Shown here: positions 15,175 to 30,499 of the stretch, in pieces
Layout: each line of letters begins with the position of its first letter
Position numbering within the stretch: position 1 is the stretch's first letter
Source of the DNA: Thermoguttaceae bacterium
GTDB lineage: Bacteria > Planctomycetota > Planctomycetia > Pirellulales > Thermoguttaceae
Assembly (NCBI GenBank): GCA_963674835.2
Contig: CAXXKC010000003.1
Coordinates: forward strand, 1,736,842-1,800,841
Direction: 5' to 3'
Length of the DNA: 64,000 nucleotides
The notes under the pieces: generated by a model
The model's database searches: none
The model's input: only the letters and a program-made list of their open reading frames with translations
Told to the model about the DNA's origin: nothing
Made by a program: the position numbers and the translations under genes

Positions 15175-16311
15175 TCATGCGCCCGCGGTTTCGTCGGCTG
15201 GGAGGGAGATCGTGAACGTGGTCCCGGCATCCAGGCGGCTTTCGACGTTGACGGTGCCGTGGTAGAGTTGCACGAGCTTCTTGACGAGCGAAAGGCCCAG
15301 TCCGCTGCCGAGGATGTGGTTGGTCCGCTCGTTCTTGATGCGGACGAACTCCTTGAAGATCTGCACCTGCTCTTCGGGCGACATTCCGATCCCGGTATCG
15401 GCGACGGCCACGACGACCTGTGAATTGTCGAATTTCAGGGCCACATCGACGCTGCCGCCGTCGCGGTTGTACTTGACCGCGTTGGAGATCAAGTTGTTCA
15501 GCAACATGGCGATTTCGTCGGCATCGGCCGTCATGGAGACGGGCCCGACGGAATTGATGCGAAGGGCGATGTTTCGGGCCTCGGCCTCGGGCTGGACCGT
15601 TTCCACAGCCGTGTTGGCGACGGCGAGGAGATCGACCTGGGCGAAGTTGCGGCCCTTGTGACCGGATTCGATTTGCGTGAGGTCGAGCAGATCGCGGATC
15701 AGTTTGTACATGCCGTCGACGCGAGCGAGGCTGCGGTCGATCATTTCGTCGTAGGACGCCAGGTCATCGCCCCGCTGTCGCTTCTTCATGAGCTGAAGAT
15801 ATCCGGCGATGGCGTTCAAGGGGGACTTCAGCTCGTGCCCCAGCACGCGGACGAACTCGAAGCGTACGCGTTGTTTTTCCTCGGCCAGTTTGCGTGCGCG
15901 CCGGGCGATGATGAGGCGGGCGGCTGTCTTACGGATCGTGCTCTTCAGCTCGTCAGGCGTGAACGGTTTGGCGAGGAAGTCGTAGGCACCCTGCTTAGTC
16001 GCGGCGACGGCGGTTTCGATCGAGGCGTAGGCCGTGATCATGATGGTGAGCATGTCGGTCTTCGTGCCAGAAAGCTCGTGAAGCACGTCCATCCCGCTGA
16101 TCCCGGGCATCTTGTGGTCGAGGAGCAAGATGTCGGGTGCCTGGCGATGGATCTTCTCGAGGGCTTCCTCGCCGGACTCGGCGTGATCGATGGAGAATCG
16201 CACGTCTTCATCGACGTCGGGGACGTGCACGACAAAGTCGCGCAAGGTGCGGAGCACGCCCATCCGCATACCCATCTCGTCGTCGGTCACCAGCAGGTTG
16301 AGTGTCTCCAT
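15175..16311 (-). CDS. Hybrid receiver-histidine kinase (REC-HisKA-HATPase)
   Basis: Trimmed to METLNLLVTDDE; this ATG 16311 lies 1 nt after the upstream gene's stop. REC motifs DILLLDHKMPGISG and FLAKPF. H-box LGHELKSPLNAIAGY. ATPase blocks NLISNAVKYN, DTGIGM and GSGLGLSL. Confidence 0.85.
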   Translation of the reverse strand: METLNLLVTDDEMGMRMGVLRTLRDFVVHVPDVDEDVRFSIDHAESGEEALEKIHRQAPDILLLDHKMPGISGMDVLHELSGTKTDMLTIMITAYASIETAVAATKQGAYDFLAKPFTPDELKSTIRKTAARLIIARRARKLAEEKQRVRFEFVRVLGHELKSPLNAIAGYLQLMKKRQRGDDLASYDEMIDRSLARVDGMYKLIRDLLDLTQIESGHKGRNFAQVDLLAVANTAVETVQPEAEARNIALRINSVGPVSMTADADEIAMLLNNLISNAVKYNRDGGSVDVALKFDNSQVVVAVADTGIGMSPEEQVQIFKEFVRIKNERTNHILGSGLGLSLVKKLVQLYHGTVNVESRLDAGTTFTISLPADETAGA

Positions 16312-16312
16312 G

Positions 16313-16717
16313 CTACTGCTTCCTTGCGGCCAGCAGGCGTTCGATCTCGCCACGAAGCTGCTCGAAACGAATGGGCTTGGGGAGCAGAGCGTCGGCCTTG
16401 ATCCAGCCGCGATCTGCTTCGGTGGCGATGTCGAAGTCGAGACCCGTTTCGCTATTGACGGAACTGACGACGATCACGGGGATGGAGGGGTCGTGCTTGC
16501 GGATATGATGGCAGAGGACGAAGCCAGCATCGGGGTTTTCCATCATGACGTCGAGGACGGCCACGTCGGGACGGCGCTCGGCAAGAAGCTCTTCGGCGTG
16601 ACGCTGCCCTTGGGCGACAAGGACGTCGAAGCCGGCGTCTTCGAGTTGCATCCGTTGTTGGAAGAGAAAATCTTCGTCGTCGTCGACCAGCAGTATCAGG
16701 GGTCTATCGGGAGTCAT
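16313..16717 (-). CDS. Single-domain response regulator (CheY-like receiver)
   Basis: MTPDRPLILLVDDDEDF..DVAVLDVMMENPDAGF..LPKPI. Start ATG 16717 is preceded by AGGAGA. There is no output domain. Confidence 0.85.
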   Translation of the reverse strand: MTPDRPLILLVDDDEDFLFQQRMQLEDAGFDVLVAQGQRHAEELLAERRPDVAVLDVMMENPDAGFVLCHHIRKHDPSIPVIVVSSVNSETGLDFDIATEADRGWIKADALLPKPIRFEQLRGEIERLLAARKQ

Positions 16718-16765
16718 TGGATTTCTCCTATTGGTTCCTATCAAGGTGAGCAGTCGGCCGTGTCC

Positions 16766-18823
16766 TCATTCTCCCATTCGCGGCAGCACCACGGTGAACG
16801 TCGAGCCGGTTGGTCCGAGGGCCGGATCGGCCTGCGATTCCACGCGGATATCGCCGGAGTGCATTTTGACGATGCCGTAGCTGACGGCGAGCCCCAGTCC
16901 CGTGCCTTTGCCGATCTGCTTGGTCGTGAAGAAGGGGTCGAAGATCTTCTTGATGTTCTCCGGCGGGATGCCGACGCCCGTATCGCTGACCGACACGCGC
17001 ACGCGCGAGTCGTCGCCATCGGTGCGAATGGTCAGCTCGCCACCGTTTTCCATGGCCGCGACGGCGTTGCTCACCAGGTTGGTTAGGACCTGGACGATCT
17101 GGTCTCGATCGACTTCGGCGATGGGATCGTCGGTGGCGTGTTCGACGCGGAGGGTGATGGATTCGGGCACAGTGAGCGCCCGCATGGTGCGCTGGACGAC
17201 CTGGCGAATATCGACGGGCGTGCGGCAGACCTTGTTCTGGCGGGCGAAGTGCAACAGGCCGGCGACGATCTTCTTGCAGCGATCGGCCTGTTCGGCGATC
17301 ATCGAGAGGTCATCGCGGAGCTTGGAATCGTTGTCGCATTCCTCCAGGAGGAGATGGGCGTACATCAGGACGACACCCAGCGGGTTGTTCACTTCGTGGG
17401 CGATGCCCGCGGCGAGTTGGCCCATGCCGGCGAGTTTTTCCGACTGGAGGAGTGCTTCCTGGGCGGCGGCGAGTTGTTTGTGGGATAGCTTGAGGTCGGT
17501 GAGCGCGACTCGGAGCTGGTCGATGGTGTTGGGCAGGCACATTTCGCTCTCGGCCAACTTCTTGTGGATGGCCACGGCGTGTTCGACGCAGGTATCGTAG
17601 CCGCAGGCGCCGCAGTTGAGTTCGTCGGCGAGCGAGAACTTGCCCATCTGATGCATGATGGCTGTTAGTTCGCTGCGGTTCGGCGCGGCGATGCGTTGAT
17701 CGTCGGCATGATAGGTGCGGCACAAATCGAGATCGGCAAGGCGGTCCATGGAATCACGCCACACGTCCTTGTCGAGGTCCTCCATGCGATGGCAGACGTA
17801 GGTGCGGACGTGGCGGCGTCGGTTGAACAACGGTAAATCGCCTTCGATGCCGGGCCCCATGATGCAACCATCGCAGCAGAGGGCTTCGAGGAGCCGGCAA
17901 CTGAGGTCGCCTTCGGCAAACTCCTTGACCGCCTCGAGCATGTGGCGCCGGCCCTGCGAGGCGATGATTTCGCCGGTGAGGAGGTCTTCGTGGATGTCGG
18001 CCGCCTGAAGGATTCCGCGGCTTACGGGGAACAGGCCCCCGATGCCGCCATGGGGCGGATCGAAGTCGCCGGCCTGGACCGATTCGGGGGTGATGCCCGC
18101 GTCGGTGAACATTCGGCGGAGTTCGGGGAACATGAGCACAGCGTCGACCTGACCGGCCATTTCCGCGCTCTGAGCCTCGACCTTCTTGGCGATGCAGGGA
18201 CCGATGAAGACGACTTTCAGGTCATCGCCATAGATGCGTCGAATGGCGCGAGTCATGGCGACCATCGGCGAGACAATCGGCGCGAGACGTTCGACCATGT
18301 CGGGATAGTACCGCTCGATGTAGCAAACGACCGCGGGGCAGGTGGTGGAGATGTAACGGCGCTGCTGGTCGCGGGTCAGCAGGTTGCGGTACTCACGGGC
18401 CACGAGATCGGCTCCGAAAGCGACCTCGACGACGAGCTGGAAACCTAGCGCGCGAATCATGCCGACCAATTGCGTGAAGGCCATTTCGGTGAATTCGGCG
18501 GGAAAGCTGGGCGCCACGCACGCGGCCACGCGGTTGCCGGATTGGAGCAGCGCTTGGACGTCATCAATACTGCTGCGAAGGACTTTGGCGTGCTGTGAAC
18601 ATACGCGGGTGCAGTTGCCACAAGCGATGCAGCGCTCGCCGACGACCTGGGCCTGGCCCTCGTTAATGCGGATCGCCTTGACGGGGCATTCGCGCACGCA
18701 CGTGTAGCACATGCGGCAGCGTTCTTTGACGGTGGTGATGAAGGCCGAACTCACGCGGATGCCTTTCTTTTCGTACCGTAGTGACCTGCGCCTCGGCTCG
18801 TTGACCTTTGCAGAGTCCCACAA
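16766..18823 (-). CDS. HydS-type (putative sensory) [FeFe]-hydrogenase-like domain fused to a histidine kinase
   Basis: Ferredoxin motifs CRMCYTCVRECP and CIACGNCTRVC. H-cluster-domain blocks STTCPAVV (L1-like, first Cys position is Thr), GPCIAKKVE (L2) and CCDGCIMGPG (L3-like). An exact Cx2Cx4Cx16C (CGACGYDTCVEHAVAIHKKLAESEMC). H-box IAHEVNNPL. ATPase blocks NLVSNAV, DTGVGI and GTGLGL. The start is uncertain: TTG 18823 or GTG 18754. Confidence 0.8.
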   Translation of the reverse strand: MWDSAKVNEPRRRSLRYEKKGIRVSSAFITTVKERCRMCYTCVRECPVKAIRINEGQAQVVGERCIACGNCTRVCSQHAKVLRSSIDDVQALLQSGNRVAACVAPSFPAEFTEMAFTQLVGMIRALGFQLVVEVAFGADLVAREYRNLLTRDQQRRYISTTCPAVVCYIERYYPDMVERLAPIVSPMVAMTRAIRRIYGDDLKVVFIGPCIAKKVEAQSAEMAGQVDAVLMFPELRRMFTDAGITPESVQAGDFDPPHGGIGGLFPVSRGILQAADIHEDLLTGEIIASQGRRHMLEAVKEFAEGDLSCRLLEALCCDGCIMGPGIEGDLPLFNRRRHVRTYVCHRMEDLDKDVWRDSMDRLADLDLCRTYHADDQRIAAPNRSELTAIMHQMGKFSLADELNCGACGYDTCVEHAVAIHKKLAESEMCLPNTIDQLRVALTDLKLSHKQLAAAQEALLQSEKLAGMGQLAAGIAHEVNNPLGVVLMYAHLLLEECDNDSKLRDDLSMIAEQADRCKKIVAGLLHFARQNKVCRTPVDIRQVVQRTMRALTVPESITLRVEHATDDPIAEVDRDQIVQVLTNLVSNAVAAMENGGELTIRTDGDDSRVRVSVSDTGVGIPPENIKKIFDPFFTTKQIGKGTGLGLAVSYGIVKMHSGDIRVESQADPALGPTGSTFTVVLPRMGE

Positions 18824-18924: not shown

Positions 18925-20646
18925 TCAGGTAACCACCCCGCGTTCGGTATAGTGGGTGTGGAGGAGATGGTGGCTCGTTTCCCCCAGTGGTTTGCCGAGG
19001 AATTCGGCATACAGTCGTCGGATCGATTCGTTGTGATGCGAGGTGCGAACCGGCTCGTTGGCGTCGATGGTGTAGAGGCTTTGCATTCGTGCCCGAACGG
19101 CGTCGAGATTGGCACCGATGGGCTGTCCACCGCCGTTGATGCACCCGCCGGGACAGGTCATGACTTCGATGAAATGGAGGTCGTCTCGGCCGGCACGTAC
19201 CTGATCGAGCAGGCGGGCAGCGTTGCCGAGACCGCTGACGACGGCGACGCCGAGCGTGAGATCGCCGATCGGCACGTGGGCCTCTTTGACGCCGTCGAGG
19301 CCGCGGACCGCCTGGACTTCGAGATCGCCCAACTCGCTACCGGTCACGAGGTAATAGGCCGTGCGGATGGCGGCCTCCATGACGCCGCCGCTGGCGCCGA
19401 AGAGTTTGCCGGCGGTGGTACGCTGGCCGAAGGGCGTGTCGGCCGTATCGGGCGGGAGATCGCGGAGATTGAGCCCAGCCATGCGAATGAGCGAGGCCAG
19501 TTCGCGCGTGGTGAGGACGGCGTCGACGTCGGCCACGCCGCCGCGTCCCATTTCCGGGCGCCCGGCTTCGAATTTCTTCGCGGTGCAGGGCATGATGCTG
19601 ACGCTGTAGATACGGGCGGGATCCAATCCCTCGCGTTGGGCAAAGTAGGTCTTGATGATGGCCCCCATCATCTGCTGGGGGCTCTTGCACGTAGAGAGGT
19701 TGCCCATGAAGTCGGGATACTGCGTTTCAACGAACTTGATCCAGCCGGGCGAGCAGCTGGTGAGCATGGGCAGCCGGCCGCCGCTGGTCAGCCGATGGAC
19801 CAGTTCGGAGCCCTCCTCCATGATGGTCAGATCGGCGGTGAAGCCGGTATCGAAGACGCGGTCGAAACCGAGTCGCCGCAGCGCGGCGGTCATGACGCCG
19901 ATTACGTCGGTACCCGGCGCTATGCCGAACTCCTCGCCGAGTGTGACAGAGACGGCGGGGGCGTGCTGTGCGACGACGATCTTGTTCGGATCGTTCAAGG
20001 CATCGAGCACCTCTTTGATCTGACTCTGTTCGGACAAGGCACCGGTGGGGCAGACGGCGATGCACTGTCCGCAGTTGATGCAACTGGAAACGTTGAGGCC
20101 TTCGTCGAAGGCGGTGCCAATTTTAGTTCTGGAGCCGCGGCCGATGAAGTCGATGGCCGCCACCCGCTGGACTTCCTCGCATACGCGGACGCACTTGCCG
20201 CAGAGGATGCACTTGGCGGGATCACGCACGATGGAGGGGCTGGAGGCGTCGATATGGTGGCGAGTGCGGTCACCGGCGAATCGTCGCTGGCGGACGCCCA
20301 GCTCTTCGGCCAGATCCTGCAGGCGGCAGTTGCCGTTGCGGTTGCAGTAGAGGCAATCGTCGGGGTGATTGGCCAGCAGCAGTTCGACGATCGTTTTTCG
20401 CGACTGCACGGCCCGCGGCGAGTGGGTGCGGACCTTCATGCCTTCGGCAACGGGAAAGGCACAGCTCGGCACGAGGCCGCGCTGGCCCTCGATCTCGACG
20501 ACACAGATGCGGCAGGCGCCGGTGGGGCTGAGCCCGTCGACGTGGCACAACGTGGGGACGCGGATTCCGGCCCTTCGCAGCGCGGTAAGGAGCATCTCAC
20601 CCTTTTCGGCGGCGATCGTTTGCCCATTGACTTCGATGTTGATCAT
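18925..20646 (-). CDS. hydA: [FeFe]-hydrogenase catalytic subunit HydA (multi-cluster, NuoG-like N-terminus)
   Basis: N-terminal 2Fe-2S and His-ligated cluster motifs (CRICVVEI, HPDDCLYCNRNGNC). Two ferredoxin motifs (CILCGKCVRVC, CINCGQCIAVCP). H-cluster blocks TSCSPGW (L1 variant), MPCTAKKFE (L2) and EVMTCPGGCINGGGQP (L3). Confidence 0.9.
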   Translation of the reverse strand: MINIEVNGQTIAAEKGEMLLTALRRAGIRVPTLCHVDGLSPTGACRICVVEIEGQRGLVPSCAFPVAEGMKVRTHSPRAVQSRKTIVELLLANHPDDCLYCNRNGNCRLQDLAEELGVRQRRFAGDRTRHHIDASSPSIVRDPAKCILCGKCVRVCEEVQRVAAIDFIGRGSRTKIGTAFDEGLNVSSCINCGQCIAVCPTGALSEQSQIKEVLDALNDPNKIVVAQHAPAVSVTLGEEFGIAPGTDVIGVMTAALRRLGFDRVFDTGFTADLTIMEEGSELVHRLTSGGRLPMLTSCSPGWIKFVETQYPDFMGNLSTCKSPQQMMGAIIKTYFAQREGLDPARIYSVSIMPCTAKKFEAGRPEMGRGGVADVDAVLTTRELASLIRMAGLNLRDLPPDTADTPFGQRTTAGKLFGASGGVMEAAIRTAYYLVTGSELGDLEVQAVRGLDGVKEAHVPIGDLTLGVAVVSGLGNAARLLDQVRAGRDDLHFIEVMTCPGGCINGGGQPIGANLDAVRARMQSLYTIDANEPVRTSHHNESIRRLYAEFLGKPLGETSHHLLHTHYTERGVVT

Positions 20647-20747: not shown

Positions 20748-22691
20748 CTAGTGTTTGACAACGGCGTCGAAGCGGCAGGCATCGATGCACGAGCCGCAAC
20801 CAATACATTTCTCTACGACGATGTGGTGAGGCGACTTGGCTGCGCCGACGATGGCCTCGGCCGGGCACTTCTTGACGCAGAGCGTGCAGCCGCGACATTT
20901 CTCCGGGTCGATCGAGTAGGTGACCAGTTCGGTGCAGACGGCCGCCGGGCAGGTGCGCTCGTAGATGTGGGATTCGTACTCGTCGCGGAACCACCGCAAC
21001 GTGCTGAGGACGGGATTGGGCGCGGTCTGGCCGAGCCCGCAGAGACTGGTGTCGCGAATGGTCTCGGCCAGGCTTTGCAGATGGAGGACGCTCTTGAATC
21101 GCTCGAGGGCGTCGATGCCTCGTTCCTTCTTCCGGCCCCGCGTAATGCGCTGGAGGATTTCCAGCATTCGTCGAGTGCCTTCGCGACAGGGGATGCACTT
21201 TCCGCAGCTTTCGCGTTGAATGAAGTCCATGAAGAACTTGGCCACGTCGACCATGCAGGTGTCTTCGTCCATGACGACGAGCCCGCCCGAGCCCATGATG
21301 GCGCCGACGGTCTTCAAGGATTCGTAGTCGACGTCGATATCGAGATGCTGGGCGGGGATGCAGCCGCCAGACGGGCCGCCGATTTGCACGGCCTTGTAGG
21401 TCTTGCCATTGGGGATGCCGCCGCCGATGTCGAAGACGATCTTGCGGATGGGCGTGCCCATGGCCACTTCGACGAGACCGGTGTGGGAGACCTTGCCCGA
21501 GAGGGCGAAGACCTTGGTGCCCTTGCTGGTCTTGGTTCCGAGGGCGCTGAAGCCGTCGGCCCCGATGGACATGACAGTGGGCAAGTTGGCCAGGGTTTCG
21601 ACGTTGTTGATGATTGTCGGCTTGCCGAAGAGTCCACTGACGGCGGGAAAGGGCGGGCGGGGGCGCGGCATGCCGCGACGACCTTCAATGCTGTGGATCA
21701 GGGCGGTTTCCTCGCCGCACACGAACGCGCCCGCGCCCATTTTGATGATGACGTGCAGACTGAAGTCGGTACCGAGAATGCTGTCGCCGAGAAGGTGGTT
21801 GGCCTCGGCCTGAGCAATGGCGGCCTTCAGTCGCTTGATGGCCAGCGGGTACTCGGCACGGATGTAGACGTAGGCCTTCGTGGCACCGATACCGTAGGCG
21901 GCAATGGCCATGCCTTCGACCAGCCGATGCGGATCGCTCTCGATCACGGCGCGATCCATGAAGGCGCCGGGATCGCCTTCGTCGGCGTTGCAGATGAGGT
22001 ATTTCTGATCGCCGGGCGACTGGCGGGCGAACTTCCATTTCCTACCGGTGGGAAAGCCGCCGCCACCCCGGCCGCGAAGGCCGCTTCGTTCGACAATGTC
22101 GCAGACGGCATCGGGCGTCGTTCCGTGGAGCGTGGCGACCAGGGCCTTGTAACCGCCGCGAGCAATGTACTCCTCGATTTGCGAGGGATCGATGAGACCG
22201 CAGTTGGCCAGCACCCAACGGGTTTGCGGAGCGAAGAAGGGATGTTCGTCCAAGAAGGGCACATCGGGCCAGGCAGGGACCGTATCGCTGCGATGCTGGC
22301 CGAGAACCAGGTCGTCGGGGGCCGCACTGGAGAGCGCTTCGTCGAGCAGGCGAGCAACCTTATCGGCAGTGATCTGCTTGTAGCACACGCGGGCGTGGCC
22401 GGGGAGTTGCACTTCGACGATCGGCTCGAGCGAACAGATGCCGATGCAGCCGACCATTACGACGTCGGCCTTGATTTCGTGGGTATCGAGGTACTGGTGA
22501 ATGGCGGCGAGGGTGTCGCGGGCGCCGGCGCCGAGTCCGCAGGTGCCGGCGCCGACGAAGATAGCGGGGCGAGGGACGTCGTCGCGGCGCAAATCGGCGA
22601 GCCGGCGGTGGCGTTGCTGGCGGGTGACCTCGTCGGCGGCCTCGCCGTTGACGGTCCAGGAGAGTAGCTCAGGCAGCTTCATCGCTGTCAT
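20748..22691 (-). CDS. hydB: NuoF-like flavoprotein subunit HydB of bifurcating-type hydrogenase
   Basis: GRGGGGFPTGRKWKF (FMN/NADH site) and ESCGKCIPCREG (N3-type cluster). C-terminal CRGCTLCVKKCP and CIGCGSCIDAC. Thioredoxin-like N-terminal domain. Confidence 0.9.
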   Translation of the reverse strand: MTAMKLPELLSWTVNGEAADEVTRQQRHRRLADLRRDDVPRPAIFVGAGTCGLGAGARDTLAAIHQYLDTHEIKADVVMVGCIGICSLEPIVEVQLPGHARVCYKQITADKVARLLDEALSSAAPDDLVLGQHRSDTVPAWPDVPFLDEHPFFAPQTRWVLANCGLIDPSQIEEYIARGGYKALVATLHGTTPDAVCDIVERSGLRGRGGGGFPTGRKWKFARQSPGDQKYLICNADEGDPGAFMDRAVIESDPHRLVEGMAIAAYGIGATKAYVYIRAEYPLAIKRLKAAIAQAEANHLLGDSILGTDFSLHVIIKMGAGAFVCGEETALIHSIEGRRGMPRPRPPFPAVSGLFGKPTIINNVETLANLPTVMSIGADGFSALGTKTSKGTKVFALSGKVSHTGLVEVAMGTPIRKIVFDIGGGIPNGKTYKAVQIGGPSGGCIPAQHLDIDVDYESLKTVGAIMGSGGLVVMDEDTCMVDVAKFFMDFIQRESCGKCIPCREGTRRMLEILQRITRGRKKERGIDALERFKSVLHLQSLAETIRDTSLCGLGQTAPNPVLSTLRWFRDEYESHIYERTCPAAVCTELVTYSIDPEKCRGCTLCVKKCPAEAIVGAAKSPHHIVVEKCIGCGSCIDACRFDAVVKH

Positions 22692-23160
22692 GACGCGAGT
22701 CCTTCTTGCGGTAGGAGTCGATGATTTTGGCCACGGATTTCGTCGTCACGCCGGCGTGGAAGTTGCCGTTGATGGAAATGACCGGCGCCAATCCGCAGGC
22801 GCCGATGCAGGCCACGACCTCCAGGCTGAACTGGCCGTCGCGGGTGGTTTGGCCCGGCTCGATCTTCAATTCCCGCTTGATCGCCTCCAGGATGGCAGCC
22901 GAGCCTTTGACGTGGCAGGCGGTGCCGCGGCAGACCTGGATGTGGTTGCGGCCCTGGGGCTGGAAGCGGAACTGGTTGTAGAAGGTGGCGACGCCGTAGA
23001 TTTTGCTGGCGGGAAGATTCAGGCGTTCTCCGATCCGCACGACGGCGTCTCGGGACAAGTAGCCGAACTCCTGCTGTACGTCCTGCAAGATGGGGATCAG
23101 GGCATCACGCGAAGCGTTGGGATATCGGTCAAGCAGTGTACCTAGTTCGTTTGTTGCCAC
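22669..23160 (-). CDS. hydC: NuoE-like 2Fe-2S subunit HydC
   Basis: ORF 22669..23604, trimmed to GTG 23160, which is preceded by GAGGAG. The upstream extension is Pro/Arg-rich noise. Motifs: VCRGTACHVKG...ACIGACGLAP. Overlaps the hydB start by 23 nt. Confidence 0.85.
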   Translation of the reverse strand: MATNELGTLLDRYPNASRDALIPILQDVQQEFGYLSRDAVVRIGERLNLPASKIYGVATFYNQFRFQPQGRNHIQVCRGTACHVKGSAAILEAIKRELKIEPGQTTRDGQFSLEVVACIGACGLAPVISINGNFHAGVTTKSVAKIIDSYRKKDSRHDSDEAA

Positions 23161-23214
23161 GAATCGTCTCCTCGGTAGACTTGTTGTGCTGAAATGTGGC
23201 TGGACAGGCACAGG

Positions 23215-23229
23215 GCAAACGACGTGCCG
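23215..23229 (-). promoter_or_regulatory. Sigma-54 (-24/-12) promoter for hydCBA
   Basis: The minus strand reads C-GGCACG-TCGT-TTGC-C, matching TGGCACG-N4-TTGC at every position except the first T. The -12 GC lies about 55 nt upstream of the hydC GTG. Confidence 0.65.
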
Positions 23230-23418
23230 TTTGCAGAAGTCAGTTTCGGGCCCAGAAAGTCGCGGCCGTTGCCGACAGGTTGCGAGGAAAAGGAAAGGGT
23301 GACGGGTGGGCAGCTCCTCCGCGTTTCGGCGATGGAGAACGCAGCGGGCAGGCGGAACGGACGGCGTTTTCCCGTCGATCCGGGCCCCGGCTCGGCTTGC
23401 AGGCCGGCGGTGATTGTG

Positions 23419-23444
23419 TGTATGATTTTGGTATACAGTGTATG
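23419..23444 (-). promoter_or_regulatory. Putative enhancer (UAS) site, copy 1
   Basis: The minus strand reads CATACA-c-TGTATA-ccaaaat-CATACA. This is the same 26-nt architecture as 25195..25220. It lies about 190 nt upstream of the hydC sigma-54 promoter and just upstream of the DHp/ntrC-like operon. Confidence 0.5.
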
Positions 23445-23464
23445 GAACGCGAAGGGTTCTGGAG

Positions 23465-23740
23465 ATGCCTACAACTGACGAGAATTCACCGCTGGGTTCG
23501 GAATCGCAGCGGTGCAACGCAGGTAGCGAGCGGCTGCTGGAGATCGGGCGATTCGCCGGCGACGTGGCCCACAAGATCAACAACCACCTGACCACAATTC
23601 TCACGTTCTCTCATCTGATGCGAGAGAAGTCGAACCTGGACGCGCAGGATCGCGAGGATCTGGATCTGATCATCCGGGAGGCGACGAACGCGGCGGCCCT
23701 TGCCCGCAATCTGCAAGACCGGGGTGCCGTGAATGAGTAG
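23465..23740 (+). CDS. Stand-alone histidine-kinase DHp (H-box) domain protein, no sensor or ATPase domain
   Basis: SERLLEIGRFAGDVAHKINNHLTTILTFSHLMREK..REDLDLIIREA aligns along both helices with the DHp of the HydS-kinase ([46 protein letters not shown]). About 91 aa from ATG 23465 (AAGGG 8 nt upstream); GTG 23438 is the alternative start. Its stop overlaps the next gene's ATG (ATGAGTAG). Confidence 0.6.
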   Translation: MPTTDENSPLGSESQRCNAGSERLLEIGRFAGDVAHKINNHLTTILTFSHLMREKSNLDAQDREDLDLIIREATNAAALARNLQDRGAVNE

Positions 23741-25160
23741 AGATGCGGCCAAACGGGAGATCGCGGAAGCGGCTCTGCGGATTCTCGTGATCGACGACGA
23801 TCCGGGAATTGGGCTGAGCTGCCAGAGGACCCTGGAGTCGGAAGGGCACGAGGTTCGGCATTGCCTAGTGCCGGAGGTCGGTCTGCAGGCCGCGTTGACG
23901 GGCGATTTTGACATTATTCTGCTGGACTTGCAGATGCCCGGGCTGAACGGGCTGGAGATTCTGCGCGAGCTGAAGTCGGCGGCTGTGCCTTCGGAAGTGA
24001 TCATGATCACGGGCCATGCGACCGTTGAATCGGCGGTCGAAGCGATGAAGCAAGGTGCGCAGGACTTTGTGAGCAAGCCGTTCTCGCCGGATCAGTTGAA
24101 GATGGCCGTCCGCCGGGCCGCGGAACACTCGCGGCTGATCAGCGAGAATGTGGCGCTGCGGCAGGAGCTGGAGATTCACCAGGGTTTTGAGGGGATCATC
24201 GGCGAAAGCCGGCCGATGGAGCGGGTTTTCGCCCTGGCGCGGCGCGTGGCGCCGACTGAGGGAACGGTGCTGCTGATCGGCGAAAGCGGCACGGGAAAAG
24301 AGGTGTTCGTGCGGGCGATTCACCGGCTGAGCCGGCGCAACGACCACCCGCTTCTGGCGTGCGACTGCAGCGCACTGGCGCCGACGCTGCTGGAGAGCGA
24401 GCTGTTCGGCCATATGAAAGGCTCGTTCAGCGGAGCCATCGTGACGAAGCAGGGGCTGTTCGAGGCGGCGCACGGCGGCACGCTTTTTCTGGATGAAATT
24501 GGCAATTTGAGCATGGAAATCCAGGGGAAACTGCTGCGGGTGCTCGAAACGAAGCGGGTAAAAAAGGTGGGCGACACGGCGGAGCGCGAGGTGGATATCC
24601 GCCTGATCTCGGCCACGAACCGCGACTTGATCGAGATGGTTCGCGAGGGGGATTTTCGAGAGGACCTGTACTATCGACTGAACGTCGTTCCCGTCTATTT
24701 GCCGCCGCTTCGGGAGCGGTCGGGCGATATCCCCCTTCTGGCGATATCCTTCCTCGACCGGTTCTGTAAGAAGAACCACGCGGCCGTGAAGGGTTTTTCG
24801 CCCGATGCGATGAGCTTGATGGAAGGGTACGCGTGGCCGGGCAACGTCCGCGAACTGCGGAACATCGTGGAGCGGCTGGCCATTCTGTGCGATCACGAGC
24901 GGATCGAGCCGCGCCATCTTCCGGCCGAGATTCGCCAAGCCCAGGTGGGCATCACGCCGGGGACGCCGCTGCCGCGCACGTGGGAGGAGTTCAAGCGGTT
25001 GAAGCAACAGATCCGCGAGTCGACCGTACAGCAATTGGAGCGGCGGTTTCTGGTCGCCTCGTTGGAGCGTTGCGAGGGCAACGTGAGCCGCACCGCCGAA
25101 GAGATCGGCATCCAGCGGACCAATCTGCATGCCCTAATGCGGAAACACGGCCTGACCTAG
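23733..25160 (+). CDS. NtrC-family sigma-54-dependent response regulator (REC-AAA+-Fis HTH)
   Basis: REC (ILVIDDDPG..IILLDLQMPGLNG..FVSKPF). AAA+ Walker A GESGTGKE. ESELFGHMKGSFSGA is a GAFTGA-loop variant. GNVRELRN is present. C-terminal HTH SRTAEEIGIQRTNLHALMRKHGL. Confidence 0.9.
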   Translation: MSRDAAKREIAEAALRILVIDDDPGIGLSCQRTLESEGHEVRHCLVPEVGLQAALTGDFDIILLDLQMPGLNGLEILRELKSAAVPSEVIMITGHATVESAVEAMKQGAQDFVSKPFSPDQLKMAVRRAAEHSRLISENVALRQELEIHQGFEGIIGESRPMERVFALARRVAPTEGTVLLIGESGTGKEVFVRAIHRLSRRNDHPLLACDCSALAPTLLESELFGHMKGSFSGAIVTKQGLFEAAHGGTLFLDEIGNLSMEIQGKLLRVLETKRVKKVGDTAEREVDIRLISATNRDLIEMVREGDFREDLYYRLNVVPVYLPPLRERSGDIPLLAISFLDRFCKKNHAAVKGFSPDAMSLMEGYAWPGNVRELRNIVERLAILCDHERIEPRHLPAEIRQAQVGITPGTPLPRTWEEFKRLKQQIRESTVQQLERRFLVASLERCEGNVSRTAEEIGIQRTNLHALMRKHGLT

Positions 25161-25194: not shown

Positions 25195-25220
25195 CATACA
25201 GTGTATGTTCGCTGCATACA
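25195..25220 (+). promoter_or_regulatory. Putative enhancer (UAS) site, copy 2
   Basis: CATACA-g-TGTATG-ttcgctg-CATACA, with a perfect 13-bp palindrome CATACAgTGTATG. It lies 119 nt upstream of the GG of the 25338 sigma-54 promoter. Confidence 0.5.
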
Positions 25221-25337
25221 CGAGAACGGGCTCGATGTGCGTGGGGCAGCGATGTTGCGCGGGGTGGAAGGCGTGTTTGGGCCGTCGTAGGGCGGGATTG
25301 TTGGGGGCGAGCGGGCGTTGCTGAAGACATCCTTGTT

Positions 25338-25352
25338 TGGCACGCGTGTTGC
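25338..25352 (+). promoter_or_regulatory. Sigma-54 (-24/-12) promoter for the REC-GcvH-like/hdr/flx operon
   Basis: TGGCACG-CGTG-TTGC is a full match to TGGCACG-N4-TTGC. It lies 84 nt upstream of ATG 25436. Confidence 0.75.
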
Positions 25353-25435: not shown

Positions 25436-27004
25436 ATGCCAAACGAACCAGCACTGTTGGTCGTGGATGACGAAGATGCAATCTGCGAGGGCTGCCGACG
25501 CATCTTCTCCCGCCAGGGCTTCGACGTGCAGAAATGCAGCGACGCGAACCAGGGCTTGAGTCTGGCAGCCCGTGGCGATTACGCCGCGATCTTGTTGGAT
25601 GTGAAGATGCCGGAGATGGATGGCCTCCATTTCCTCGAAGCGCTGCGCAAGGACCAGCCGACGGTGCCGGTGATCTTGATGACCGGTTACCCGAGCATCC
25701 CGAACGCGGCCTCGGCCATTCGATTGGGCGCATCGGACTATGTGACGAAGCCATTTACGCCGGACGAGATCACGCAGGCCGTTCACCGCCTGTTGCACAC
25801 GAGCCAGAACCCGGCGGCGACAGCGACGATCAGCGAGCCGCCCGCGCCGGATGCTCCGCTGCATTTCTTCCGCGACGCCTGGTATCAGACGAACCGCGAA
25901 GGCATCGCGAGAGTGGGCGCGGTCGTGGTACGGCGGGGCGCGGCGAAGATTCAGTCGCTGCGTTTGCCGAAGATCGGCGAAGTCGTGTATCAGGGGCTGC
26001 CGCTGGCGGTGGTAACGATCGCCGGTCAGCCGCCGCGTACGATCTCTGCACCGCTTTCGGGCGTTGTCGTGGCCGTGAACGACGCGTTGGCCAGCGACGC
26101 GGCGCCGGTGCTCGATGAGCCGTGTGGAAAGGGCTGGCTCGCCTGCATCTGTCCGACACGACTCGAGGAGGAATCGACGCGATGCCCGTTGCGGCGCGTC
26201 CTCCTGTTGAGCCAAGACGACGAGGCAGCCCGGCAGCAGACGGAACGTCTGTGTGCGCTGGGGTGCGAGGTGCGCCGGCTCAGCGATCCGAAGGAATTGA
26301 CCGAAGTTCAACGCGGCTTCGACTCGAACCTGCTGCTGGTCGACGCCAAGACTCTGGGAACGGAAGGGCCGGGCATGGTCGGCGCGCTGAACGCGGCCGA
26401 TCCCGCGTTGAAGATCGTCGTACTGGCGTCGGCCGACTCCGTATTGGAGCCCGCCTATCGCACGCGGCGGATCTTCTACTATGCCGTCGAGCCGTTTGCC
26501 GACAACGAGATCGCGGACATCATCGCCGGCGCTTGCCAGGCGCCGCCGAGTACGCAGCCGGGTACGCGCCGAGAGCAGGCGCAGACGCTGGGCTGCATCT
26601 TCATCACCAACCGGAATCGGACACGCGTGCGGCTGATCGCGGCACCGGGGCTGCTGCGACGCGAGGACGGCTTGGGCCTGCTGCTGCGGCAGAGGCTGAT
26701 GGAGCGACGTTTTCCGCTGGAGAGCTCACCGAGCGAAACGCCGATCACGCCCATGCACTTGCTCCGCGAAGCGTCTCACTGCGACCGGGTGATCGTGCTG
26801 TTGGCACAGGATCACGGTCGGCTGCCGGGGAGCCTGTCGCGCGACACGAAGGCGGAGTACATCGCGATGGTGGGTGCGGGCGCCGACAAGGTGACGACAT
26901 TCCTGCTGCAGCCGAGCGACGTGCCGGACGAGCCGATGGCGTTGGATCCACAGATTCTCGAGGCGCTGGCGGATCAGTTGTCGCACGAGATGGCATCCTG
27001 TTAG
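25436..27004 (+). CDS. Response-regulator receiver fused to a GcvH-like domain (no lipoyl lysine), a pseudo-receiver and an unknown C-terminal region
   Basis: ORF 25337..27004, trimmed to ATG 25436 (GAGGGA upstream). REC: LLVVDDEDA..AILLDVKMPEMDG..VILMTGY..YVTKPF. GcvH-like: SAPLSGVVVAVNDALASDAAPVLDEPCGKGW, compare E. coli GcvH [30 protein letters not shown]. The ESVK lysine position reads TIAGQ here. The second REC-like block (LLLVDAK..KIVVLASAD..YYAVEPF) lacks the conserved Lys. Confidence 0.7.
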   Translation: MPNEPALLVVDDEDAICEGCRRIFSRQGFDVQKCSDANQGLSLAARGDYAAILLDVKMPEMDGLHFLEALRKDQPTVPVILMTGYPSIPNAASAIRLGASDYVTKPFTPDEITQAVHRLLHTSQNPAATATISEPPAPDAPLHFFRDAWYQTNREGIARVGAVVVRRGAAKIQSLRLPKIGEVVYQGLPLAVVTIAGQPPRTISAPLSGVVVAVNDALASDAAPVLDEPCGKGWLACICPTRLEEESTRCPLRRVLLLSQDDEAARQQTERLCALGCEVRRLSDPKELTEVQRGFDSNLLLVDAKTLGTEGPGMVGALNAADPALKIVVLASADSVLEPAYRTRRIFYYAVEPFADNEIADIIAGACQAPPSTQPGTRREQAQTLGCIFITNRNRTRVRLIAAPGLLRREDGLGLLLRQRLMERRFPLESSPSETPITPMHLLREASHCDRVIVLLAQDHGRLPGSLSRDTKAEYIAMVGAGADKVTTFLLQPSDVPDEPMALDPQILEALADQLSHEMASC

Positions 27005-27023: not shown

Positions 27024-27575
27024 GTGTCCACTACCACCGCTAGCATGCCCAAGGGCTTCGAACGCCTGAAGGTGACCGACTGTTACCAATGCGGCAAGTG
27101 TTCGGCCGGCTGTCCGATGTCGGAACACATGGACTTGCTGCCGAACCAGTTGGTTCGCCTGGTTCAGCTTGGCCGCCTGGAGCGAGCGATGATGTGTGAG
27201 GCGATCTGGAAATGCGTGTCGTGCATGACCTGCACGACGCGGTGCCCGAAGTCGGTCGATTGCGCCGGTGTGATGGACGCCCTGCGACAGGCGGCGGTTC
27301 AGCAGGGGAAGGTTCCGGAGGAACGGCGGCGAACCGTCTGCTTCCAACAGGCCTTTCTGGACAACATCCGCCGCAACGGCCGGCTTTGCGAGCTGGAGCT
27401 GATCGGTGTGTTCAAGACGAGGGCGTTCTTCAGGGACCACAGCGTTTCGCTGTTACTGAAGGACGCGATGTTGGCACCGCAGTTGATCCTGCGCCGGAAG
27501 TTCCACATCCGTGGTGAGCGAGCGAAAGACCGCGGAGTCGTGCAACGGATCTTTGAGAGGTGCGAGCGACGATGA
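27024..27575 (+). CDS. hdrC: Heterodisulfide reductase subunit C
   Basis: CYQCGKCSAGCP and CVSCMTCTTRCP motifs, about 183 aa. Start is GTG 27024, with ATG 27045 as the alternative. Confidence 0.85.
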   Translation: MSTTTASMPKGFERLKVTDCYQCGKCSAGCPMSEHMDLLPNQLVRLVQLGRLERAMMCEAIWKCVSCMTCTTRCPKSVDCAGVMDALRQAAVQQGKVPEERRRTVCFQQAFLDNIRRNGRLCELELIGVFKTRAFFRDHSVSLLLKDAMLAPQLILRRKFHIRGERAKDRGVVQRIFERCERR

Positions 27576-27648
27576 AACGGCGACCGCCGGTCGCGTTGTG
27601 CGCGGCGCGAGTGCCGGCCGTGGCATTGCAACGAGGAGACCTTCCACC

Positions 27649-28491
27649 GTGGATTTCGGCTACTACCCTGGTTGCGCGTTGCATGGATCGTCGAACGACT
27701 ATGGACAGTCGGTACGTGCCTGTCTGGCAGCACTGGGCGTCGGGCTGCACGAGCTGGACGACTGGATCTGCTGCGGGGCGACGGCGGCCCACTCGCTGAA
27801 CCATACCTTGGCCGTGGCATTGCCGGCGAGAAACCTGGCCATCGCCGAGCGTGACGGGCTGACGGACCTGCTGGCGCCGTGCCCGATGTGTTCGATGGAG
27901 CTGCTGAAGGCGCAGGGCGTGCTGGCGGCTTCGGAGGATGCCCGGCGGCAGATGTCGGAGATCGTCGAACTGCCAGTTCGCGGCAGCACGCGGGTGCTCA
28001 ACCTGATTCAGGTGTTGCAGCAGGTGGGCGTGGAGGCGATCCAGGAGAAGGCGACCCGCCGGCTCGAAGAGTTCCGCGCGGCATGCTACTACGGATGCCT
28101 TCTGACGCGTCCGCCGGAAACGCTGCGGTTCGACGACTGCGAGCAGCCCGATTCGATGGAGACCATTCTGCGGGCCCTGGGGGCAGAGCCAGTGGAATGG
28201 AACTACAAGACAGAGTGCTGCGGGGCCGGCATGACGATCGCCGATGAGGAGGTCGTGCTGGAGCTGTCGCACAAGATCCTGAGCAACGCACGTCAGCACG
28301 ACGCCAATTGCATGGTGGTGGCGTGCCCGATGTGTCACGCGAACCTCGACATGAAGCAGGCCGACATCGAGCGACGCTACGGATGCCGCCACGAGATGCC
28401 GGTGTATTATCTGTCGGACCTGGTTGGGCTAGCGGTGGGATTGGACGAGCGCTCGCTAGGAATCCATCGGCATTTTGTCGTGAAACGGTGA
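27649..28491 (+). CDS. hdrB: Heterodisulfide reductase subunit B (two CCG domains)
   Basis: ORF 27511..28491, trimmed to GTG 27649 (AGGAGA 9 nt upstream), giving MDFGYYPGCALHG. CCG motifs WICCGATAAH and TECCGAGMT. Confidence 0.85.
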   Translation: MDFGYYPGCALHGSSNDYGQSVRACLAALGVGLHELDDWICCGATAAHSLNHTLAVALPARNLAIAERDGLTDLLAPCPMCSMELLKAQGVLAASEDARRQMSEIVELPVRGSTRVLNLIQVLQQVGVEAIQEKATRRLEEFRAACYYGCLLTRPPETLRFDDCEQPDSMETILRALGAEPVEWNYKTECCGAGMTIADEEVVLELSHKILSNARQHDANCMVVACPMCHANLDMKQADIERRYGCRHEMPVYYLSDLVGLAVGLDERSLGIHRHFVVKR

Positions 28492-28498
28492 TCAGAGC

Positions 28499-30499
28499 AT
28501 GGCACGAATCGGCGTATTCATCTGTTGGTGTGGCGAGAACATCGCCCGCAACGTCGACGTGGAACGGGCGGCGGTGGCAGCGGGAGAGCTGCCGGGCGTC
28601 GTCAGCGCGACCGCGTACAAGTACATGTGCTCTGACCCGGGGCAGTCGCTGATGCGTCGCGCGATCGCGTCGGAGCGATTGACGGGCGTGGTGGTGGCGT
28701 CGTGCTCGCCGCACATGCATCTGCGCACGTTCCGAAAGGCGGCGGCCTTGGAGGGGCTGAATCCTTACCTGGTCGAGATGGCCAACATCCGCGAGCATTG
28801 TTCCTGGGTGCACCACGATCGGCAGGAGGCGACCGAGAAGGCCATCGAACTGATTCGGATGGCAGTGGCCAAGGTGCGCTGCAACCATGCTCTGGAGCCG
28901 ATCGCCATACCCGTGACGCCGAGAGTGCTGGTAATCGGCGGAGGTGTGGCGGGGATTCAGGCGGCGTTGGACGTGGCAGACGCCGGGCACCAGGTGGTGC
29001 TGGTCGAGCGCGAACCGTCGATCGGCGGGAAGATGGCGGGGCTGTCGGAGACGTTTCCGACGCTGGACTGCTCGCAGTGCATTCTGACGCCGCGGATGGT
29101 CGACGTCGGCCAGCATCCGAACATCACGCTGCACACCTATAGCGAAGTGGAATCGGTCGAGGGCTATGTCGGCAATTTTCGGGTGACGATTCGAAAGAAG
29201 GCCCGTTACGTCGACATCGACAAGTGCACGGGCTGCGGACAGTGCATGACGTCGTGCCCCTCGAAGAAGACCCCGAGCGAGTTCGATTACCGGATGGGGA
29301 CGCGGACGGCGATCTACATCCCCTTCCCGCAAGCCGTACCCGCCCGTCCGGTCATCGACCGTGACGCGTGTCTGCACTTTCTCAAGGGCAAGTGCGGCAT
29401 CTGCGTCAAGAAGTGTCAGGCCGGGGCCATCAACTATGACGACCAGGATCGGCTCGTGACCGAGGAGGTCGGGGCGGTCATTGTCGCGACCGGCTTCCAA
29501 CTCTACCAGATCGGCAAGACGCAAGACGGCAACAAGACCGCCGGATACGGCGAGTACGGATACGGCCAGCACGCCGACGTGATCGACTCGCTGCAGTTCG
29601 AGCGGCTGGTTTCGGCGTCGGGTCCGACCGGCGGCGAGATCCGGCGTCCTTCCGACGGCACTGTGCCCAAAACGGTCGTCTTCATCAGTTGCGTCGGTTC
29701 TCGCGACAATGCCAAGGGGCTCTCGTACTGCTCGAAGATCTGCTGCATGTACACGGCCAAACACACGATGCTCTACAAGCACAAGGTGCATGACGGCACA
29801 GCGCACGTGTTCTATATGGACATCCGCGCGGGCGGCAAGAACTACGACGAGTTTGTGCGGCGGGCGATCGAGCAGGACGGGGCGCAGTATCATCGGGGCC
29901 GGGTTTCGAAGATCACCGCGGAGCGAGGAAAGCTGATTGTCCGCGGAGTCGACACGCTAATGAATGAGTCGCTGACGGTCGAGGCCGACCTGGTCGTGCT
30001 GGCTGCGGCCATGCGGCCGGCCCACGAGGTCGAGCGTTTGGCCCAGAAGCTGAGCGTGGGCTATGACGAGAACGGTTTTCTGTCGGAATCGCACCCGAAG
30101 CTGCGGCCGGTGGAGACGAGTTCGGCCGGGGTGTTCGTATGCGGGGCCTGCCAAGGGCCGAAAGACATTCCCGAATCGGTGGCACAGGCCAGCGCGGCCG
30201 CCGGCAAGGTGTTGGTGATGTTCGGCCACCGGCAACTCACTCGCGAGCCGGAAATCGCGAAGGTGAACGAAACGAACTGCGCGGCGTGTTTTGCGTGTGC
30301 GCGGGCGTGCCCGTACAACGCAATCGAGCGAGCGGAGATCGTGGATCGTAAGGGCAACCCGCTGAAGCGTACGGCCCGGGTCAACCAGGGGTTGTGCATG
30401 GGTTGCGGGACGTGCGTGGCGATGTGCCCTTCGAAGAGCATCGACCTGGACGGCTTTAGCGAGGAACAGGTATACGCGATGCTGGAGAGTCTGGAATGA
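28499..30499 (+). CDS. hdrA: Heterodisulfide reductase subunit A (FAD, multiple 4Fe-4S)
   Basis: MvhD-like N-domain (IGVFICWCGENIA..VVVASCSPHMH). FAD fold VLVIGGGVAGIQAALD. Ferredoxin motifs CTGCGQCMTSCP, CGICVKKCQ, CAACFACARACP and CMGCGTCVAMCP. Confidence 0.9.
   Translation: MARIGVFICWCGENIARNVDVERAAVAAGELPGVVSATAYKYMCSDPGQSLMRRAIASERLTGVVVASCSPHMHLRTFRKAAALEGLNPYLVEMANIREHCSWVHHDRQEATEKAIELIRMAVAKVRCNHALEPIAIPVTPRVLVIGGGVAGIQAALDVADAGHQVVLVEREPSIGGKMAGLSETFPTLDCSQCILTPRMVDVGQHPNITLHTYSEVESVEGYVGNFRVTIRKKARYVDIDKCTGCGQCMTSCPSKKTPSEFDYRMGTRTAIYIPFPQAVPARPVIDRDACLHFLKGKCGICVKKCQAGAINYDDQDRLVTEEVGAVIVATGFQLYQIGKTQDGNKTAGYGEYGYGQHADVIDSLQFERLVSASGPTGGEIRRPSDGTVPKTVVFISCVGSRDNAKGLSYCSKICCMYTAKHTMLYKHKVHDGTAHVFYMDIRAGGKNYDEFVRRAIEQDGAQYHRGRVSKITAERGKLIVRGVDTLMNESLTVEADLVVLAAAMRPAHEVERLAQKLSVGYDENGFLSESHPKLRPVETSSAGVFVCGACQGPKDIPESVAQASAAAGKVLVMFGHRQLTREPEIAKVNETNCAACFACARACPYNAIERAEIVDRKGNPLKRTARVNQGLCMGCGTCVAMCPSKSIDLDGFSEEQVYAMLESLE

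Follow-up and report, generated by a model that had tools for sequence, protein, structure and literature searches.

Laboratory truncations of EnvZ and NtrB have shown since about 2000 that the isolated DHp hairpin of a histidine kinase can act as a receiver phosphatase; in the passages of PMC3510030 that cite Zhu et al. 2000 and Kramer & Weiss 1999, DHp-only fragments of the two kinases are described as sufficient for phosphatase activity and as conferring a constitutive-phosphatase phenotype in vivo. PhyT/PhyP, a negative regulator of the general stress response, also relays phosphate from a single-domain receiver (PMC5898713), and phosphoacceptor or phosphatase roles have been proposed for proteins that contain HisKA with a conserved His but no HATPase (Galperin et al. 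2018, PMC5847659). Spo0B of Bacillus and ChpT of Caulobacter descend from kinases as well; they have lost ATP binding and keep a dimeric DHp four-helix bundle with a phosphorylatable His. Here we analyse a 64,000-nt stretch of the genome of a Thermoguttaceae bacterium (assembly GCA_963674835.2, contig CAXXKC010000003.1, positions 1,736,842 to 1,800,841; hereafter the window, in whose own numbering coordinates are given), in which a gene directly upstream of an NtrC-type sigma-54 activator encodes nothing but such a hairpin. This gene, mini-DHp, is a real gene under purifying selection. Judged by homology, its product is by descent the surviving DHp hairpin of the former cognate sensor kinase of NtrC, and we tentatively read it as a putative phosphatase or insulator of that activator.

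Functionally, mini-DHp would be closest to the engineered NtrB/EnvZ DHp fragments and to PhyT. With the “domain A” fragments of E. coli NtrB (NRII) and EnvZ it shares an isolated HisKA hairpin of ~70–90 aa with an H-x-x-x-N/T motif, and with the NtrB fragment also the origin from an NtrB-type kinase and an NtrC-type regulator (the EnvZ fragment acts on OmpR). Unlike these laboratory truncations, which have the wild-type H-E/D, mini-DHp is a natural, selected gene with fixed E to K and P to H replacements. Like PhyT/PhyP of Sphingomonas melonis, it is kinase-derived, lacks ATPase function, lies at the locus of its regulator and has a basic residue directly after the His (H+1) and Asn at H+4; however, PhyT is of the HisKA_2/HWE type and membrane-anchored, with a periplasmic domain and a degenerate CA domain, whereas mini-DHp is of the HisKA type, soluble and without CA. 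It differs from Spo0B and ChpT in lacking their C-terminal alpha/beta (pseudo-CA) domain and any Pfam similarity to them. Spo0B and ChpT have an acidic residue after the His, where mini-DHp has Lys. The descriptive category “HisKA, no HATPase” or “possible incomplete histidine kinase” (P2CS) fits, but the archaeal proteins placed there carry an N-terminal PAS/GAF (PMC5847659), whereas mini-DHp is a DHp alone with traceable ancestry and partner. Its parent family by descent is that of the ZraS/AtoS/NtrB-type kinases paired with sigma-54 activators, from which it departs by having no transmembrane (TM) segments, Cache, HAMP, CA or catalytic Glu. It is not a canonical sensor histidine kinase, since it lacks HATPase_c (N, G1, F and G2 boxes), an acidic H+1 and an input module, nor is it an HPt protein (PF01627, a monomeric four-helix bundle with H-x-x-K-G), as it has no Pfam match to that family and is modelled as a two-helix hairpin. 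A literature search of incomplete coverage returned no characterised natural DHp-only protein with traceable partner and ancestry, only mentions in censuses.

On the + strand, a GTG at 23438 opens a frame of 100 codons that runs to 23740. Public gene calls and the homologue alignment begin at an ATG at 23465, which is the likely start because the GTG sits inside a conserved palindrome (23433-23443). The mini-DHp gene is accordingly placed at 23465-23740 (+), with its TAG stop at 23738-23740, and encodes 91 aa (P0001 is 100% identical). An initial annotation of this DNA, made from the letters alone, had described a DHp-only open reading frame (ORF) without TM, sensor or ATP-binding domain, which our results confirm. 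HisKA (PF00512) is the single Pfam domain (33.8 bits at a gathering cut-off of 26.9 bits, E 3.7e-8, residues 37-94 of the 100-aa form), and the Pfam scan gave no HATPase_c, HAMP, PAS, TM or sensor match. An AlphaFold2 (AF2) model based on the family alignment forms an antiparallel helical hairpin with a mean pLDDT of 82 (core about 90 or above), in which a disordered N-terminal tail of ~11 residues is followed by alpha1 (12-53), a loop and alpha2 (60-89). About 20 poorly conserved residues precede the DHp core, in place of any input module, and the ORF terminates at the DHp/CA boundary. The top Foldseek matches of the model in the PDB are the DHp domains of ERS1, GacS, CpxA and ZraS, and a profile search against PDB sequences matched the kinases CckA, LvrB and ZraS. 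As had been noted at the outset, the His is kept and is followed by Lys at H+1 and Asn at H+4: the H-box reads AHKINNHL, with His36, Lys37 (H+1), Asn39, Asn40 (H+4) and His41 (H+5), all on alpha1. Two over-long minus-strand ORFs, 22669-23604 (311 aa) and 23486-24076 (196 aa), overlap the gene and result from the 62% G+C.

A search of 5.8 billion proteins yielded 27 true relatives, nearly all of them 85-93 aa long and 57-76% identical, which carry the HisKA annotation and no other domain; the carriers are metagenome-assembled genomes (MAGs) of Planctomycetota (Thermoguttaceae and relatives). In the 28-sequence alignment His36, Asn39, Asn40 and 22 further positions are invariant, and Lys37 and His41 are conserved to at least 90%. 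An HMMER scan of 1.84 billion cluster representatives resolved the family into five representative clusters (E <= 2e-23), separated by a gap in score from the full-length kinases (E >= 2e-17). Pairwise dN/dS (Nei-Gojobori) among the five mini genes with available DNA was 0.11-0.29 at a dS of 0.6-2.3. Gene order around the gene is identical in every contig with context. Conservation of the small ORF in related genomes, proposed as a check in the initial annotation, was found in length as well as in synteny.

The initial annotation had further taken the overlap of the mini stop with the activator start as a sign of translational coupling and of a real gene rather than a remnant, and both arguments hold in part. 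In the window the stop overlaps the ATG at 23733 of the 475-aa activator by 8 nt, as ATGAGTAG. This overlap is confined to the window genome, and its relatives have a gap of 3-5 nt between the mini stop and the ntrC start; nevertheless, mini and ntrC are always directly adjacent (-8 to +5 nt), and in L001 and L065 a Shine-Dalgarno-like GGGAG for ntrC lies within the last codons of the mini gene. Likewise, the dN/dS values speak for a real gene, but by descent it is a remnant of a full-length kinase that occupied the same slot.

The evidence for this descent comes from a scan of species-representative genomes, which returned mostly full-length kinases rather than mini proteins. Six loci (L006, L009, L010, L015, L017 and L023) have a kinase of ~650 aa between hydC and the NtrC orthologue, composed of two TM segments, a periplasmic Cache, HAMP, DHp and CA. 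Its DHp is 54-60% identical to mini-DHp (55-68% for slot kinases overall), and the NtrC orthologues next to it are 72-78% identical to that of the window, the range over full-length slot kinases in general being 65-78%. In four loci of Pirellulales (L005, L012, L013 and L045) a different periplasmic domain, not alignable with the Cache type, precedes the same DHp and CA, to which a HAMP-less coiled coil connects it; besides being lost, the input domain of the slot kinase has thus also been swapped. A third form of ~350 aa (L041-L043, L046 and L014) has the order TM-TM-HAMP-DHp-CA, the periplasmic Cache being cleanly excised (e.g., L042 2847-3905), and the DHp of L041-L043 is the nearest full-kinase relative of mini-DHp, with 68% identity. 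In a neighbour-joining tree of the NtrC orthologues, computed without bootstrap, the mini loci form one clade that is sister to L041/L042 and nested among the full-length types. Because L046 is placed apart from L041/L042, this tree suggests that the periplasmic sensor was lost at least twice.

Among the 150 nearest HisKA stretches, Lys at H+1 recovered two further proteins, P0041 (238 aa) and P0036 (196 aa). P0041 (L068 789-1505) opens directly with the DHp (AHKVNNHL), followed by a CA-like domain in which other residues stand at both N-box Asn positions and in the G1 box, and which has lost the F and G2 boxes; it shares the layout of Spo0B and ChpT, and its match to the HPTransfase Pfam family reached only E 0.06, under the cut-off. 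On its contig it fills the same slot, with hydC (86% identical to that of the window) pointing leftward from a palindrome and P0041 and ntrC following rightward. The slot thus displays a reduction series from the ~650-aa full-length kinase over the ~350-aa sensor-less form and the 238-aa DHp (H-K) with degenerate CA to the DHp only. A relaxed tblastn search found no sensor, HAMP or CA remnants flanking the mini gene in the window, and of the L009 kinase only residues 412-476 match the window.

Soluble proteins with a DHp and a degenerate CA (AHK/AHQ-VNNHL) were also observed in a SecA-RecG-BNR context without hyd genes, namely P0036 (L069/L070 8001-8591) and P0175 (L071 10001-10765). Downstream in L069 and L070, ntrC is present only as fragments (8748-9126); this appears to be a locus copy in decay. 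Several other candidates were rejected. The contig of P0028 (140 aa, H-E), considered as an intermediate, is a long-read assembly in which a full-length kinase is frameshifted into Cache, HisKA and HATPase fragments; P0031, P0034, P0035, P0045, P0049, P0110 and others from the 1.84-billion search are H-E fragments running into out-of-frame sequence and not mini proteins; and a truncated mini ORF in L025 is an assembly artefact rather than a pseudogene, since every gene in that contig is fragmented. Frameshifts are frequent in the long-read MAG contigs L014, L017, L025, L065 and L066, where they split hydA, hydB, hdrA and the slot kinase, and such assemblies seed databases with spurious “short HisKA proteins” (P0028, P0031, P0110).

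To see which residues were kept and which changed during the reduction, 27 mini proteins were compared with 19 slot kinases. The residue at H+1 is K in 27/27 mini proteins vs E in 19/19 slot kinases; of the 150 nearest HisKA stretches, whose His aligns with His36, 146 have E or D there. Further fixed changes are P to H at H+5 and A to G at H-4; H+8, an interface position, is G in the slot kinases and T in the mini proteins, and the C-terminal half of alpha2 has changed from RAAEIVxGLLDFA to QAAALARNLQDF. The His, the N-N at H+3/H+4, the residues at H+6, +7, +10, +11, +12 and +15 (L, T, L, T, F, L) and the loop with the start of alpha2 (EDLDLII-E) are unchanged. From specificity work on HK853-RR468 and EnvZ-OmpR, lower alpha1 and the start of alpha2 contact the receiver, whereas H+1 and upper alpha2 face the CA domain. 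In mini-DHp the receiver-contact positions H+7, +11, +12 and +15 (T, T, F, L) are retained and divergence is concentrated at H+1, H+5 and upper alpha2, a pattern that one expects if receiver docking is still under selection and CA contacts are not. In the HisKA kinases CrdS, HK853 and two NtrB homologues, the acidic residue at H+1 is needed only for kinase activity and Thr/Asn at H+4 only for phosphatase activity (Willett & Kirby 2012, PMC3510030). As mini-DHp has no ATP-binding domain and Lys replaces the catalytic Glu at H+1, it cannot autophosphorylate and, by this comparison, cannot be a kinase.

Rightward, mini is followed by the NtrC-type activator, REC-GcvH, hdrC, hdrB, hdrA and flpD. 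The activator (23733..25160, +; 475 aa; REC, Sigma54_activat and HTH_8 in Pfam) is the probable substrate of mini-DHp. Its orthologues are 65-82% identical across the relatives; its receiver keeps the acidic pair (DD), the phospho-Asp, Thr and Lys, and alpha1 of this receiver (x-I/V-G-x-S/A/G-C-Q/R-R-x-L) is conserved in mini-type and full-type genomes. The response regulator REC-GcvH (25436..27004, +; Response_reg and GCV_H in Pfam, with a long C-terminal region) is encoded by the first gene of the hdrCBA-flpD operon, upstream of the hdrC, hdrB and hdrA homologues (27024..30499, +). It is a possible second partner of mini-DHp, because alpha1 of its receiver (AICEGCRRIF) resembles that of NtrC. 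Its real start is the ATG at 25436; the TTG at 25337 given in the ORF list overlaps a sigma-54 promoter. Besides the receiver and the GcvH-like domain, REC-GcvH has ~250 uncharacterised residues. The lipoyl-lysine site, ESVKA in E. coli GcvH, reads TIAGQ in this protein, so that the GcvH-like domain is probably not lipoylated.

Leftward, the order of transcription is hydC, hydB, hydA, HydS-kinase, single-domain receiver and REC-kinase. The HydABC-type [FeFe] hydrogenase operon, divergent from mini, comprises hydC (22669-23160, -; GTG start at 23160), hydB (20748-22691, -) and hydA (18925-20646, -). It is followed by a gene for a HydS-type sensory [FeFe]-hydrogenase fused to a histidine kinase (16766..18823, -; Fer4, Fe_hyd_lg_C, FeS, HisKA and HATPase_c in Pfam; start codon uncertain), by a single-domain response regulator (16313..16744, -) and by a REC-HisKA-HATPase kinase (15175..16353, -), which the DHp comparison assigns to a third specificity class (GHELKSPLNAIAGY). 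At the DHp specificity positions the HydS-kinase has G, V, M, Y and the REC-kinase N, A, G, Y, both unlike the mini type, and a comparison of mini-type with full-type genomes detected no rewiring of either DHp. Altogether, four receivers are encoded in the locus. The single-domain receiver has an alpha1 (DFLFQQRMQL) unlike that of NtrC and unchanged between mini-type and full-type genomes, and its aromatic switch residue is replaced by Leu. It also carries 7 inserted residues behind beta4 and reads MMENPDAG where MPxxDG is usual. More than an output regulator, it resembles a receiver that serves as relay or sink.

Two sigma-54 -24/-12 elements were identified. The first, CGGCACGTCGTTTGC (23215..23229, -; one mismatch), faces hydC and has equivalents in L001, L065, L067, L009, L006, L023 and L010; the second, TGGCACGCGTGTTGC (25338..25352, +; 0 mismatches), lies upstream of REC-GcvH and is conserved in L001, L065, L006 and L005. 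Both are conserved across mini-type and full-type relatives. Over the whole window the pattern does not occur above chance (73 hits vs 68 expected at 2 mismatches), and only these two intergenic, correctly oriented and conserved hits were used. Of the 11-bp palindrome ATACAGTGTAT the 64-kb window contains exactly two copies, with 0.15 expected. Copy 1 (23433..23443) precedes the mini ATG by 22 nt and the hyd sigma-54 promoter by ~205 nt, and copy 2 (25196..25206) precedes the REC-GcvH/hdr sigma-54 promoter by ~140 nt; the palindrome is found at the same two positions in mini-type and full-type loci and also upstream of the gene for the 238-aa P0041. It is probably a binding site of the NtrC-type activator or, in the case of copy 1, the operator of the mini-ntrC operon. 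As conserved sigma-54 elements and palindromes precede both the hydCBA/HydS-kinase and the REC-GcvH/hdrCBA operons, the activator most likely controls the two as one sigma-54 regulon. An Rfam scan of the whole window gave no match. Elsewhere in the window, 8117-11653 (-) encodes an unrelated and unusual multi-domain membrane protein of 1177 aa with a BlaR1-type M56 peptidase, leucine-rich repeats, thioredoxin/redoxin and SHD1.

With slightly less than even confidence, we favour the reading of mini-DHp as a kinase-dead, DHp-only putative phosphatase or insulator of the co-encoded NtrC, because it matches the DHp fragments described above, appears locked in a kinase-minus/phosphatase-plus state and is made together with its substrate. 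According to this proposal, mini-DHp would homodimerise into a four-helix bundle and still dock on the receiver of NtrC, perhaps also on that of REC-GcvH, where the retained His36 and Asn40 site would hydrolyse the aspartyl phosphate. Co-expressed at a stoichiometric level, it would reset NtrC~P and curb phosphorylation by non-cognate donors, thereby setting the threshold for sigma-54-dependent hyd and hdr expression; the phosphorylation state of NtrC would be the control point on which it acts. Several points weigh against this proposal. In the relevant passage of Willett & Kirby 2012 (PMC3510030), an isolated DHp is a weak phosphatase without its CA domain. A constitutive phosphatase present at a fixed ratio would also need a strong phosphodonor, and none is identifiable in the locus, where the specificity residues of the HydS-kinase and the REC-kinase are unlike the mini type and unaltered in mini-type genomes. 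The invariant His would fit a phosphotransferase just as well, a basic H+1 does not preclude His phosphorylation in HisKA_2/HWE proteins such as PhyT/PhyP with HRxxN (PMC5898713), the intermediate form has the architecture of Spo0B/ChpT, and P to H at H+5 and G to T at the H+8 interface position are further changes that the proposal has to accommodate.

The strongest alternative, which we consider doubtful, is that mini-DHp works as a histidine phosphotransferase within a multi-step relay, as Spo0B, ChpT and PhyT do. His36 would then take the phosphoryl group from a receiver, either the single-domain regulator next to the HydS-kinase or REC-GcvH, and pass it to NtrC, linking H2 sensing to sigma-54 activation; such a protein could be bifunctional like PhyT and restrain NtrC, too. 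The invariance of His36, the presence of a Spo0F-like single-domain receiver without aromatic switch residue beside an H2-sensor kinase, the DHp plus pseudo-CA organisation of the 238-aa in-slot intermediate, the likeness of alpha1 in REC-GcvH and NtrC and the fact that no direct NtrC kinase is evident in mini-type loci are all in line with a relay, and PhyT itself is a degenerate kinase initially taken for a phosphatase, before its role in relaying phosphate was demonstrated (PMC5898713). Because PhyT carries HRxxN, a basic residue after the His alone does not exclude His phosphorylation. Yet HisKA chemistry uses the acidic residue at H+1 to activate the His nucleophile (PMC3510030), which would matter for Asp-to-His transfer as well, and mini-DHp has no Pfam match to the Spo0B, ChpT or HPt families at E <= 1. 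Moreover, since alpha1 of the single-domain receiver, itself unlike that of NtrC, is the same in mini and full-length genomes, there is no sign that a new donor-acceptor pair arose upon loss of CA. A more far-reaching version, somewhat less probable still, makes mini-DHp a minimal natural phosphotransfer hub, smaller than any other known member of the Spo0B/ChpT/PhyT functional class: a reversible shuttle between the HydS-kinase branch and the activator, operating via the single-domain receiver or REC-GcvH and acting as a phosphatase when no donor is present. It would have originated by the stepwise sensor-kinase reduction of which all intermediates are extant in sister lineages.

Without any phosphoryl chemistry, a DHp dimer could simply cover the NtrC receiver, shielding it from non-cognate kinases and acetyl phosphate or holding NtrC dimers inactive. 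The retained receiver-contact positions and the stoichiometric, coupled expression with ntrC would suit such a modulator, and PhyT is known to block inappropriate PhyR phosphorylation via protein-protein interaction (PMC5898713); however, invariant His36, Asn39 and Asn40 in ~27 diverged sequences are hard to explain without chemistry, and we regard this as quite improbable. Considerably less probable again is a dominant-negative modulator that heterodimerises with a full kinase, be it the HydS-kinase or a paralogue elsewhere, with the DHp-DHp contact of RetS-GacS as precedent. The DHp is the dimerisation domain, the fold of mini-DHp matches the GacS DHp seen in the RetS complex, and the alignment with the HydS-kinase DHp reported in the initial annotation is real (BLASTP 33% identity over 63 aa, E 5e-12). 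Still, the HydS-kinase, taken there as point of reference, is neither the relevant relative nor the likely partner: slot kinases reach 55-68%, the specificity positions differ, and neither the HydS-kinase nor the REC-kinase has a DHp that changes between mini-type and full-type genomes. The 64-kb window holds no slot-kinase paralogue, and it is ntrC rather than a kinase to which the mini gene is coupled. Of the three functions initially put forward, a dedicated phosphatase is therefore favoured, Spo0B-like phosphotransfer comes with the doubts given above, and the HydS-kinase heterodimer is the least supported. The most improbable explanation of all is a non-functional leftover of a decaying kinase gene whose frame is open by chance. 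Mini-DHp does derive from a kinase by two deletions, and related decay occurs in the orphan copy of L069/L070 beside NtrC fragments, but the dN/dS of 0.11-0.29 at near-saturated dS, the intact frame and constant length of 85-93 aa in ~27 clusters, the position of the deletions at clean domain boundaries and the fixed family-specific substitutions common to all members argue against it.

The mechanism we favour for mini-DHp, phosphatase action of a bare DHp on a receiver, would be unsurprising to two-component specialists; unusual are its natural occurrence, the fixed E to K switch and the complete reduction series. The case combines demonstrated selection, a nameable partner, a known ancestor and the survival in relatives of every reduction step (sensor loss, kinase inactivation by E to K, CA degeneration and CA deletion). 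A handful of small soluble proteins would thus suffice to test how small a unit can still carry out the phosphatase or phosphotransfer reaction of a histidine kinase and how phosphorelay parts like Spo0B arise from kinases. If mini-DHp were indeed a phosphotransfer hub, it would show the conversion of a two-component pair into a phosphorelay. The finding also concerns annotation, as public data list mini genes under “sensor kinase”, and the regulation of electron-bifurcating hydrogenase and Hdr operons in planctomycetes.

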